From a virus (Duplodnaviria > Caudoviricetes), in IMG/VR virus record IMGVR_UViG_3300032365_000087, positions 1-25,851 of that record: 25,851 nt of DNA, one strand, 5' to 3'. Shown here piece by piece: positions 13,760 through 21,556 of this stretch. The notes beneath the pieces were generated by a model. It saw nothing but the letters and a program-made list of their open reading frames with translations, ran no database searches and was not told the origin of the DNA. The stretch's first letter is position 1. The number at the start of each line of letters is the position of its first letter. Position numbers and translations under genes: made by a program.

Positions 13760-13844
13760 CTGTTATCTGTTTTCTGTTTGCTGTTTTCTGTTGTTAATTC
13801 AGTTCCTTAACAGAAAACAGAAAACCCCTAACAGAAAACCGCCT
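13760..13844 (-). repeat. Heptamer inverted-repeat element C
   Basis: AGGCGGTTTTCTGTTAGGGGTTTTCTGTTTTCTGTTAAGG...(AACAGAA)n starting right after TAA. Confidence 0.9.
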
Positions 13845-14538: not shown

Positions 14539-14629
14539 CTGTTTTCTGTTTTCTGTTATCTGTTTTCTGTTGGTATTCGGGCTGTTGGCCTTTAACAGAA
14601 AACAGAAAACCCCTAACAGAAAACCGCCT
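14539..14629 (-). repeat. Heptamer inverted-repeat element B
   Basis: Same 5' arm as elements A and C, different spacer. Confidence 0.9.
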
Positions 14630-17348: not shown

Positions 17349-18686
17349 TCATCGTGCCTTCTTGACCGCCCCGAGGGGGTCTTTGGGGTCCTCCGGCGCC
17401 GCTCTGGTAGCACCCGGCGGCAAATCGCCTTCCTTGCTCACCGCCCGGGGCTTGCCGGCATCCGCCGGCTGGTCCTCCACCTTTTTCAGGCGGTCCCTGA
17501 GCTCCTGGTTTTCCTTTTCCAGGGCCTCCAGGCGCTTCAAAATCTCCTCCTGCCCCTGCAAAACTTCCTCCAGTTTTTCCATGTCCTCCTCCTCCTCATC
17601 CTCTACGGTTTTGGCCATTTTCCCGGCCCCGGCGCAGTCGGCGCCCAGGTGCACGCTGCGGTCGTGGATGTGCTGGATGTGCTCCTGGTCCTGCTTGCTG
17701 TGCCGAGCCCCGGCCTTGGCCACCCCCGCCTTTTCTTCCTCCGCCTCCATCACCTCGGCGGCAATGAAGGCCTGCAGATTCTTGAGGGCCCCGCACAAAA
17801 GGGGCAGCTGCTCCTGGGCCGCCGGGCCGAAGTCGTTCCATTTCTCCCGCTCGAACAGAGCGGCAATCAAGGCCAGGGCCTGCAGGGCGTCCTGGAGGTC
17901 CCAGATCTCCTGGGCCGCGATGACCTGCAGGTCCGCCTTGGCCAGCTTCTCCGCCGCCTCCGCCGCCGAGGGCGGCCCGGCCGGGTCGATCTTGTCCTTC
18001 CAGGCCGAAATGATCCGGCCCTTGATGGTCTTCATGTCCTCGGGGGAATACTTGGCGGCGTTCTTCGCCTTGTTGATGTAGTTCCAGGCCGCCCGGATGT
18101 GGGCCTCGGTGTCGATGGGGTATTTCTTGTTCTTTTCGTCGGCGAACTTCACGTCCCCGTATTTCTCTTCCCCTTCCTCGGGCTTCACATCCTGGCGGGC
18201 GGCAATTTTTTTCAGGCGCTCGATCTCAGACAGCATCGCCGCCTTTTCCCGCTCCAAGTCCTCCGGGCTGCTCTCGTCCAGCTTGAACAGGGTGATGAGG
18301 GCCTCGGGATTGGCGGGCCGGTCCACCAGGGAGATCTCGGTGAGGCGCATCCGGGTCACGGTGTCCCCCACCTTGGCCACCTTCTTGCCGCCCAGGGAGA
18401 AACCCTTGTAAACCCCCTCCTCCACCTTTTTCCAGGCCTGATCATCAACCACCTTGGCGCAGAGGAACAGCCCCTTTTCATCCAGGTTGGCCTCCTTGGC
18501 CACCCCCACTGCCGAGGGCTGGTGCATCTCCCGGATGTTGGCGAACTTCATGTAATCCGCCAGGGCCCCTTCCACCGCCTCCTTGCTGACCCGCTCCCCC
18601 TGGCTGTCCAGGGCCTCGGTGGTGGCGTAGCCGTAAACCAGGCGCTGCACCGGGTCGCGCTTGACGATATCCATGTAGAATTTCAT
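17349..18686 (-). CDS. Prohead protease (XkdF/HK97-type serine protease) fused to a DUF6582-like domain and a coiled-coil scaffold tail
   Basis: R.VYGYA.TE..D.QGE, NIREMH, GVYKGFSLGG, EISLVDRPANPEA; KYPIDT..HIRAAW.YI; acidic coiled-coil C-terminus. Confidence 0.85.
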   Translation of the reverse strand: MKFYMDIVKRDPVQRLVYGYATTEALDSQGERVSKEAVEGALADYMKFANIREMHQPSAVGVAKEANLDEKGLFLCAKVVDDQAWKKVEEGVYKGFSLGGKKVAKVGDTVTRMRLTEISLVDRPANPEALITLFKLDESSPEDLEREKAAMLSEIERLKKIAARQDVKPEEGEEKYGDVKFADEKNKKYPIDTEAHIRAAWNYINKAKNAAKYSPEDMKTIKGRIISAWKDKIDPAGPPSAAEAAEKLAKADLQVIAAQEIWDLQDALQALALIAALFEREKWNDFGPAAQEQLPLLCGALKNLQAFIAAEVMEAEEEKAGVAKAGARHSKQDQEHIQHIHDRSVHLGADCAGAGKMAKTVEDEEEEDMEKLEEVLQGQEEILKRLEALEKENQELRDRLKKVEDQPADAGKPRAVSKEGDLPPGATRAAPEDPKDPLGAVKKAR

Positions 18687-18792: not shown

Positions 18793-19875
18793 TTACTCCT
18801 TCCCCCCCACGAGGGGAACCACGTCGCAATTTCAATGGGGGTGCGGGGCGGGCGGATCTCCCTGGGGAAATTCCTCGTCAATCCCCGCCTCCATGCCCTC
18901 GTAGCCTTCGCATTCCTCACAGACATTGCCGCCGGAAGAGAGAATCCACTTGCGCTTCTCCACCACCCCGCTCTGCCGCCAGGCCAGCAGGTTCCCCTGG
19001 ATGTCGGCCCGGACCGTCTCGGTGCGGGCGATCATCTGGGCCCGGGCCTCGGAGAAGGCGTACGAGTCCCGGATGGCGTCGGCCAGGCGGGCGCTGCTCC
19101 AGCCCTCCTCCAGGGCCTGGGCCACGTCATTCCTAAGCATCTCCCGGGTGGACTCCAGGAGGCTGTTTTTCTCGTCCGGGTTGTCCACCAGGACTCCGTC
19201 CTGCCAGATTTTCCCCACCAGTTCGGCGGTCCAGGACCGGGCCCAGTTCACCGCCAGGTCATTGGCTGCGGCGGCCATCTCCGCCTCGGGGGAGAAGCCG
19301 ATCTGCAGGAAGGCCTGGGCCACCCCTTCCCTGGTGACGGCCGTAAGCAACGGCGCCAGGTCGTCCCAGATGACCGCCCAGGCCCGGGTCTCGATGGCCT
19401 TTAAAATTTTCTGAACCTCATCCTCATCGTCTTCGGCCCTGGCGAGCTTCTCATAGGCATTTATCGCATTTCTGGCCGCGGACCGGGCCCAGCGGCGAAA
19501 GGTCCCGCGCAAAAGTTCGGCCACCTTCTGGCGCAGGGCCTTTACCTTCGGCCGGTCCCGGTTGATGGGCCGCGCCATAGCCCTGGCCAGTTGCAGCAGG
19601 GCCTGCCGCTCCAGCTTCAGCAGGTCGTCCAGGCCCGCCTTGTGGAGGGCTTCCTTGATTTCCTGCCACTCTTCCGGGGTTTTTTCTTCGCCGGCGCCCT
19701 CGCCGTTGCCTGCCGCGCTGGCGGCGGCCTGGGTCTCGCCCTGGGTCTGGCTCTGGGCCAGGATGTCCTTCAGGAGGATGGCGCCCTGGGCGGTAAATAT
19801 CGCATTCGGCATGCCGATGGGGTCCAGGCCCCGCTCCTCCCGCACCTCGTCCACCGAGCGGATGCCGCATTTCAC
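18793..19875 (-). CDS. Portal C-terminal segment plus Mu gpF / SPP1 gp7-like minor head (morphogenesis) domain; in-frame TGA at 18832-18834, probable true stop TAA at 18793-18795
   Basis: GIRSVDEVREERGLDP portal motif; RA..IARTE, K.W, CEEC and PHPH*NC.VVP matching the HPxCxC motif. Confidence 0.8.
18800..18818 (-). promoter_or_regulatory. Candidate bacterial SECIS hairpin
   Basis: UUCCCCUC-GUG-GGGGGGAA starts after a 13-nt spacer downstream of the UGA; loop GU at +22/+23. Confidence 0.5.
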
Positions 19876-21068
19876 GTCGCGCTCCTCGATCTGGAGGCGG
19901 TGTCCGCGTCGATATCATCCTCCAGCTTCCACTCGAAGCGCAGCTCCGGCTCCTGGAGGTACTTGGCGATGAGCAGGTTCATCAATCCCGTGACCCAGTT
20001 CAGCATGGGGGCCAGGCCCTCCTCCAGGGCGGCCCGCTTCAGGGTCTCGGAGGTGGCCCGGTTCATCACCCGGACAAAGGGGGCCGGGGAGATGGAAAAC
20101 ACGAAACAGATCACCCGGGCCAGCCACTCGTCAAACTCGTCCTTCAGGGGCGCCAGCTTGGTCTCGTGGATCTGGGCGGTCTCCGAAGGCACGAACTTCA
20201 CCTTGCGGCGCTGGGCCAGGTTGCCTTCCAGCAGGGCGTCCCAGTATTTCTGGAATTCGGCGATCTGCTGCGGGGTCCATTCCTTGGGGACCCCGGCGAA
20301 GGCGTCCGGGATGGTGCCTTCCCGGTAGTAATTGAATTGAAAAACGGTGCGGTTCAGGGCGATGGAGGTGATCATGATCACCTGCTCCACCGGGGAAAAC
20401 CCGTAATTCCGCCAGGACCGGACATTCCGGGGCTTGTAGACCAGCTGGTCCCGGGTGTAGTCCGCCGCCGGCACCCCGTGCAGGATCTGCTGGTAGGCCG
20501 GCGAGGGCGGCAGGGGGGTGCGGCCGTGCTCGTCAATGAGCCGGTTGATGGTGGCCCCGTCCAGGACCTCCAGGCCATAGAGCTTGCCGCCCCGACTGTA
20601 GCGGGGCAGCACCGCGGGGGCGTCAATCACCAGCAGGTCTTCCAGCAGGGCCTTCACCCAGGTTCCCCAGTCATGGGCCTTGTCGGGCCAGGCCAGGAAT
20701 TCCTCCACCTGGGCGCAGCGGCGCTTAGTGGCGGCGCTAATGTCCCTGGGGTCCTTGGGCAGGATATTGAACTCCATCTTGGCCATCTGGTCCTTGCGGG
20801 TCTCGATCACCGCCCGCAGCAGGTCGCAGGAATCCGCCAGGGCCCGGAGCTGCCACATGGCCACCCCTTTTTCCCCCTGCTGGGGGACGATGCGGATGTT
20901 CAACCCCACCGGGTAATCCCACAGCCGGCCGGCCGCCTCCTGGGCCACCGGCAGGATGGGCTGCATCGGCCCGAACCAGGTGCTGGGGGTCACCCCGGTG
21001 ATGATGTATTTCAGGCCCTGGACCACCCGGGTGAAGGCGCCCGGACCGTTTTTCGTTTCTTCAGCCAT
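19872..21068 (-). CDS. Portal protein (HK97-type), N-terminal part; reading frame shifts near 19893
   Basis: LRALAD..D.LR.VIETRKDQ, EDLLVIDA, YG.SPVEQ, KDEFDEWLAR.IC..F.ISP..F, NRAT.E motifs. Confidence 0.9.
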   Translation of the reverse strand: MAEETKNGPGAFTRVVQGLKYIITGVTPSTWFGPMQPILPVAQEAAGRLWDYPVGLNIRIVPQQGEKGVAMWQLRALADSCDLLRAVIETRKDQMAKMEFNILPKDPRDISAATKRRCAQVEEFLAWPDKAHDWGTWVKALLEDLLVIDAPAVLPRYSRGGKLYGLEVLDGATINRLIDEHGRTPLPPSPAYQQILHGVPAADYTRDQLVYKPRNVRSWRNYGFSPVEQVIMITSIALNRTVFQFNYYREGTIPDAFAGVPKEWTPQQIAEFQKYWDALLEGNLAQRRKVKFVPSETAQIHETKLAPLKDEFDEWLARVICFVFSISPAPFVRVMNRATSETLKRAALEEGLAPMLNWVTGLMNLLIAKYLQEPELRFEWKLEDDIDADTASRSRSAT

Positions 21069-21084: not shown

Positions 21085-21207
21085 CTGCTCACAGCTTGCT
21101 GCTCACTGCTCTCTGATCCATTTAGTGAGCGGTAAGCAGTGAGCGGTGAGCAGTAGCTGCTAACTGCTTACAAACTGCTTACTGCTCCCTGCTTACTGCT
21201 CACTGCT
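21085..21207 (-). repeat. Heptamer inverted-repeat element F: (GCAGTRA)n / (CYGCTYA)n, three arms
   Basis: 7-nt periodic gcagtaa/gcagtga arms flank a reverse-complement arm; overlaps the upstream stop codon. Confidence 0.85.
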
Positions 21208-21460
21208 TTATTACTCCTGGGGGCAGATGAATCCGGCCGCCCTCCCCCGCCGCCAGGCGCTGGCCGATGATGATATTGGCCGCATCCAGAAGCACCTTGA
21301 CATACTGGGCCAAGAGGTTGCGGTCCTGGGTGTCCGGGAAGTTGACGGCGATGGTATTGTTGTCCAGGTATTGCACCTTGATCTCAAGCAGCACCTTGGG
21401 CTGGGCTGCGGCCGCCGCCGCCTGCAACCTCCGCATCTCCTTCGCCGTGGATTCGCTCAT
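21200..21460 (-). CDS. Hypothetical protein (86 aa)
   Basis: AGGTG RBS, operon strand, bounded by heptamer elements E and F. Confidence 0.7.
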   Translation of the reverse strand: MSESTAKEMRRLQAAAAAAQPKVLLEIKVQYLDNNTIAVNFPDTQDRNLLAQYVKVLLDAANIIIGQRLAAGEGGRIHLPPGVIKQ

Positions 21461-21485: not shown

Positions 21486-21556
21486 CAGTTTTCTGTTTTC
21501 TGTTGTTAATACAGATAGATAATCCTTAACAGAAAACAGATAACAGAAAACCGCCT
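21486..21556 (-). repeat. Heptamer inverted-repeat element E
   Basis: AGGCGGTTTTCTGTTATCTGTTTTCTGTTAAGG...AACAGAAAACAGAAAACTG right after TAA. Confidence 0.9.

Follow-up and report, generated by a model that had tools for sequence, protein, structure and literature searches.

An in-frame UGA, probably read as selenocysteine, at a conserved cysteine codon of phage MuF proteins

The portal–MuF locus and its terminal motif

The window, by which we mean the whole 25.9-kb virus record (25,851 nucleotides), contains no host DNA; genes for the head, the tail and lysis lie on its minus strand. On this strand, the frame from 19875 to 18793 ends as ...CEEC...PPAPHPH-TGA-NCDVVPLVGGKE-TAA, with the TGA at 18834–18832 and the TAA at 18795–18793. 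When the UGA was read as Cys, two profiles of the MuF domain (18820..19137, minus strand) extended across it, PF04233 (residues 247–352, E = 5e-14, 53.3 bits against a cut-off of 29.6) and TIGR01641 (E = 1e-10, 41.6 bits against a cut-off of 39.65). The predicted structure of the domain (pLDDT 78.5) resembled head-morphogenesis models (best E = 2e-8), and sequence and fold searches of the PDB with MuF gave no meaningful match and no solved relative.

The adjoining portal part (PF04860; 19872..21068, minus strand) stops early in the window copy. In two related sequences, L001 and L096, portal and MuF form a single frame of 741 and 740 codons, respectively, up to the TGA. MuF is fused to PF04860 in L001, L096 and L031, which places it in the head module beside the portal. 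From its sequence, the protein is a portal–MuF (Mu gpF/SPP1 gp7) fusion that is broken in the window copy by a 1-nt deletion (19890..19894, near 19892, minus strand; comparison with L001). The extra base at ∼19892 is present in one contig each of two peat runs. Even with the deletion, a GTGA stop/start overlap remains at 19872–19875, so that the two halves may be expressed as coupled genes and MuF may still be translated.

The prohead protease gene downstream (17349..18686, minus strand) is missing 2 nt close to its 3′ end (near 17355, within 17349–17360), which costs the protease about 8 residues relative to L001. The two further lesions mentioned in the earlier note were thereby both located. 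With two frameshifts, the window copy may be decaying or misassembled, and the TGA therefore had to be examined in other sequences. Between the MuF and protease genes, L001 (3417–4349) and L031 (1546–2150) carry unrelated extra genes, and in the window nothing but a short repeat spacer separates the two. Tandem 7-mer repeats were also observed at gene junctions of the window at 2178–2252, 13760–13792, 14539–14571, 21124–21208 and 21528–21551.

The in-frame UGA (18832..18834, minus strand) is, by alignment, the predicted selenocysteine (Sec) codon, and the same codon is found in eight relatives. It had been proposed to fall on the first Cys of the terminal HxxCxC motif of MuF, which reads H-P-H-[UGA]-N-C in the window. 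This placement was borne out, as all 28 other homologues from the protein homologue search have Cys in this column and both profiles span the UGA. The 12 codons that follow (NCDVVPLVGGKE; 18796..18831, minus strand) include the second conserved Cys (18826–18828) and lead to the TAA (18793..18795, minus strand), which would end the gene if the UGA is decoded. The earlier note had taken this TAA as the real end because a junction repeat was thought to start right after it. The 7-mer tandem repeat in fact starts 13 nt beyond the TAA, but the end region itself stands, since the frames of the relatives end 11 to 20 codons past the UGA.

We compared the conservation of the motif residues. The Cys, His, Cys and Cys columns are invariant in alignment A2 (24 of the 28 homologues); they include the motif His (18841..18843, minus strand), a predicted metal ligand, and the second Cys of the upstream CEEC (18910..18921, minus strand). 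This CEEC, earlier described as a CxxC element of the family, is indeed present, but its first Cys is not conserved. Among 150 representatives, 140 have HxxCxC, seven have what look like inteins interrupting the motif, and three end just before the Cys; the upstream Cys occurs in 140/140, the first Cys of CxxC in only 42/140. Two proteins, P0055 and P0132, end exactly before the first Cys and are candidates for further Sec cases.

Intein-like insertions were observed at the MuF motif of P0034, P0044, P0046, P0050, P0062, P0082, P0129 and P0162, where each insertion ends immediately before the UGA-column Cys; of these proteins, P0034 alone is labelled as an intein carrier by Pfam. In P0034, the intein lies directly before the Cys that is UGA in the window. 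Inteins generally insert at important residues, and this placement suggests that the residue matters.

Recurrence of the UGA across MuF lineages

UGA occupies this codon in nine loci of five lineages: the window together with L001 and L094–L096, and the separate lineages L031, L013, L038 and L259. The earlier note had made its reading depend on homologues with TGA at the Cys column, and such homologues are thus present. Within the window clade, the related peat phage sequences L001, L094, L095 and L096 all have UGA, and the residues flanking it vary (HPH, HHN, HLQ). DNA identity between L001 and the window is 80–96%. In the locus set that contains L094–L097, four of five loci have TGA (one of them, L097, repeating L001) and one distant locus has Cys. 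The closest sister, P0033, has Cys in the UGA column, is 77% identical to the L001 domain and ends HPNCDCTVVAVVGGKE; its terminal VGGKE is the same as that of the window. The window clade and P0033 would therefore constitute a Sec/Cys pair.

The other lineages came from wider searches. Pattern scans of viral contigs yielded L013 (∼29% identical), L031 (another portal–MuF fusion) and L038. In one such scan, 1 of 10 hits was MuF (L001 again), and in another 2 of 22 (L031, L013). A search of 401 genomes from the phylum whose record is titled Thermodesulfobacteriota yielded 28 MuF matches, of which only L259, in genome G289, is a UGA form (H-T-F-TGA-R-C). The best MuF match among these 401 genomes is in G017. 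UGA forms are rare: with one pattern, a single match was obtained against an estimated ∼3400 Cys stretches. A pattern scan of the genome collection gave 37 matches, none in MuF; no UGA form was seen among 21 MuF matches in the order of G017 or among 45 matches in 401 genomes of a second phylum, where 30 loci and four extra stretches were inspected. Apart from L259, the other internal stops among the phylum and G017-order matches were ordinary terminal stops. The order of G017 also has a MuF subfamily (L244, L250, L266, L275–L291) that is without the motif His and ends IxxCRC after CxYPCDP.

In the trees, the window clade is nested within Cys forms (P0033, 100/99; P0140, 100/99), and L031 lies beside a Cys-coding prophage of G017. 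These placements come from a FastTree tree and a 28-row tree whose rows were picked after the FastTree result. L013 and L259 are long branches of unsure placement, and L038 is absent from both trees. A single clade of the window lineage and L031 was rejected (p-AU = 3.65e-7, in a test set without L013, L038 and L259). This pattern suggests that Cys has been changed to Sec more than once in phages whose hosts use Sec.

A downstream hairpin with SECIS-like geometry

Next, we analyzed the hairpin that had been claimed to follow the UGA. It has the claimed form: 8 bp at +14 to +32 from the UGA, a GUG loop at +22..+24 and GGUU at +12. This SECIS-like element lies within the coding frame (18800..18818, minus strand), with a spacing of 21 nt after the UGA and an energy of −11.7 kcal/mol. 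In the accessible text of PMC13188914, the bacterial SECIS model has a loop of 3–9 nt, a stem of 4–16 bp, G in the first two loop positions, a spacing of 16–37 nt and an energy of ≤−7.5 kcal/mol. We relied on these published constraints, in our own implementation and not in bSECISearch, because our first hairpin rule had been set after the UGA loci were seen.

The constraints were passed by 8/9 UGA loci, compared with 8/112 Cys MuF loci, which are phylogenetically non-independent, and 0/6 true TGA stops of the window. Cys-coding relatives, whose retention of the hairpin the earlier note had named as evidence against Sec, are thus mostly without it. Among the Cys loci with a GC content of at least 50%, 6/64 passed. 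With one value per lineage, the five lineages differed from 111 Cys loci (Mann–Whitney p = 1.8e-4), and the spacing was 18–21 nt in 9/9 UGA loci. The constraints were also passed by the selD gene of G017, whose own frame contains a TGA.

In the window alone, the hairpin is no better than chance against dinucleotide shuffles (z = −0.16 to −1.09 in five folds) and gives P = 0.14 against synonymous recoding. When the peptide was kept and the codons were resampled, using window codon usage for all loci, P was 0.03–0.19 per locus and 0.004 combined over the five lineages; the single-locus values are of this size because the peptide itself forms much of the stem. The hairpin is therefore significant only across loci and not in the window alone. 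L038 misses the energy limit (−6.1), and for both L038 and L259 a fold other than the SECIS-like one has the lowest energy. Column-wise covariation was left uncounted because the lineages differ in stem register; in the register of L094–L096, the window retains three U-A pairs as U-G.

Decoding of the UGA, its host and its possible role

Taken as a whole, these sequence comparisons make it likely that the UGA is decoded as selenocysteine via the SelB of the host. We weighed this reading against matched-codon controls and the genetic code of the phages. With a matched pattern, TGA at the first Cys gave two MuF genes in 21 hits, TGG at the first Cys none in 18, and TGA at the second Cys eight in 22, all eight with more in-frame TGAs; the numbers in these controls are small. 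The eight genes look globally recoded. They belong to AT-rich phages (L099, L102, L105, L116–L120) with several in-frame TGAs at Gly-like positions, the second motif Cys position included, so that their proteins would be without that Cys. In the window, TGA ends 6/24 main ORFs. The 741-codon frame of L001 has 22 TGG and 47 GGN codons and no further TGA. The signs of genome-wide TGA recoding, namely many in-frame TGAs at Trp or Gly and TGA no longer a stop, were thus absent.

The UGA might instead be decoded as Cys or Trp, either by a UGA-reading Cys-tRNA with SelB-type factors or by leaky near-cognate read-through. Cys-tRNA variants of this kind that work with SelB-type factors occur in some anaerobes, Cys is the usual residue of the family, and the downstream peptide would be conserved under any read-through. 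The window and L001 moreover have UGA-A, which is a leaky stop context, but the base after the UGA differs among the loci (A, C, G). Trp was not seen in the column, there being no MuF genes among the 18 TGG hits, the hairpin geometry fits the Sec consensus, and the tested genomes have canonical tRNA-Sec and selA. We therefore regard decoding as Cys or Trp as unlikely.

It is also unlikely that the UGA is a true stop and that one-step TGY-to-TGA changes have repeatedly removed a dispensable MuF tail. Such a change takes one substitution, P0055 and P0132 do end at the UGA column, the window has other lesions, and SPP1 gp7 is dispensable for assembly (PMC6316719, accessible text). However, in 9/9 DNA-level cases the TGA falls at one codon and is followed by an open, conserved C-x-hydrophobic tail. 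No case was found of changes that are equally easy, namely TGG at the first Cys and, in phages with the standard code, TGA at the second Cys, and hairpins are enriched relative to both the Cys forms and the real stops.

A sequencing or assembly error, or a mutation private to the window contig, might be imagined from the two indel lesions of the window, but it is barely conceivable, since four other assemblies of related phages (L001, L094–L096) share the TGA and thereby reject it at the clade level. In four peat runs, which held contigs of relatives only, the codon was covered, and no change at 18832–18834 occurred among the 40 of 453 differences listed. An alternative code that reads every TGA as Trp or Gly does occur in the MuF family, in the eight recoded genes, but for this phage it is scarcely tenable and was rejected, as the UGA column is Cys and not Trp or Gly, TGA ends ORFs of the window and the L001 frame is without a second TGA.

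Sec decoding requires a suitable host, and the earlier note had called for Sec machinery there. G289, in which L259 sits among terminase, portal and head genes of a prophage, has selA, selB and tRNA-Sec above the cut-off; selD was searched for in this incomplete genome and not found. The machinery is thus largely present in the host of one UGA prophage. For the window, we infer a host that uses Sec and belongs to the phylum whose record is titled Thermodesulfobacteriota. In the order of G017, which is the probable host order of this phage, 76/83 genomes have selA and 7/83 have capsid homologues at 46–52%. The phage heptamer repeat occurs in 3/5 genomes tested, all three from this phylum. One type of junction repeat is common to genomes of the likely host group. 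The runs that hold related sequence are peat metagenomes. A search for tRNA-Sec in four phage records, all incomplete, found none.

For Sec decoding, we propose the following sequence of events. The hairpin 14–32 nt downstream of the UGA would act as a bacterial SECIS, whose loop G would be bound by the host SelB, delivering Sec-tRNA at the UGA. The product would end in a C...H-x-x-U-x-C site. The invariant set comprises one upstream Cys, the His and both motif Cys residues and therefore suggests a Cys3His-type site rather than two CxxC halves. In this site, which would probably bind zinc, Sec may replace one thiolate; given Sec, a metal-ligand role seems slightly more likely than not. If Sec insertion failed, the subunit would be 13 residues shorter at its C-terminal end and would retain only two of the four ligands.

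The consequences for the virion can be considered by analogy with SPP1 gp7, which, according to the accessible text of PMC6316719, binds the portal and is dispensable for assembly, its loss leaving ∼25% of virions infectious. By this analogy, and from its fusion to the portal, the MuF domain would be located at the portal vertex; it would increase the proportion of infectious particles without being required for assembly, so that infectivity is the likely target of Sec or of truncation. More tentatively, and with rather less confidence than in the decoding itself, we suggest that tailed phages infecting anaerobic Sec users may repeatedly have made a conserved metal-ligand Cys of MuF into Sec, which would be the first selenoprotein family of phages and the first viral selenoprotein with a structural role. 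If decoding were partial, it might then produce portal rings with a selenium-dependent mixture of full-length and truncated MuF, which could tie infectivity to host selenium and limit productive hosts to Sec users.

By sequence criteria, the gene would work both as a bacterial selenoprotein gene and as a MuF1 member. It is like the bacterial selenoprotein genes described in the accessible text of PMC13188914 in having UGA at a conserved Cys column with Cys homologues, a UxC-type motif, a hairpin in the 16–37 nt range whose first two loop positions include G, and a link to Sec-using anaerobes. Unlike them, it is phage-encoded and specifies a virion protein with no detected oxidoreductase fold; the main text of PMC13188914 makes no mention of phage, virus, capsid, PF04233 or gp7. 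As in the MuF1 family of Mu gpF and SPP1 gp7 (accessible texts of PMC5576092 and PMC6316719), the domain scores above the cut-off, directly follows the portal and has an HxxCxC end. It differs in being portal-fused in the intact relatives, in having UGA for the first motif Cys and in lacking a C-terminal toxin domain.

The viral selenoproteins named in the accessible text of PMC8310308 are the poxvirus glutathione peroxidases (molluscum contagiosum, fowlpox), which are likewise virus-encoded; they rely on the Sec machinery of the host, as would the window protein. Those are captured host enzymes of animal viruses with a eukaryotic SECIS, whereas the window gene is a native phage structural gene in which Sec was apparently gained repeatedly. 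The gene also shares in-frame TGA in structural genes, MuF included, with phages in which TGA is reassigned genome-wide (codes 4 and 25), but it has a single TGA, which falls at Cys and is accompanied by a hairpin, and the phage otherwise uses TGA as an ordinary stop. The earlier view that no phage case had been described agrees with our search of the openly accessible literature, selenoproteome papers among it; it found no phage selenoprotein, and none appears in the accessible text of PMC13188914, PMC12013277, PMC9312934, PMC13745706, PMC9402790, PMC8310308 and bioRxiv 2022.07.06.499078.

If correct, the presence of Sec in a native protein of the phage virion would extend selenoproteins to a new family that lies beyond redox metabolism and would imply that phages evolve SECIS elements tuned to the host SelB. 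Gene callers cut MuF proteins short at the UGA (P0002, P0031, P0032), which hides the UGA class in databases; a UGA-plus-SECIS gene could in turn mark Sec-using hosts. The MuF domain occurs in about one-third of tailed phages, and its function is largely unknown (PMC5576092, accessible text). The predicted Sec codon flags its conserved Cys/His site as a probable chemically active site, which is now open to testing. The L038 locus (1378–1545) encodes a MuF tail of 54 residues that stands alone and contains the UGA; it lies two genes past a major capsid gene and offers a minimal form for biochemistry.
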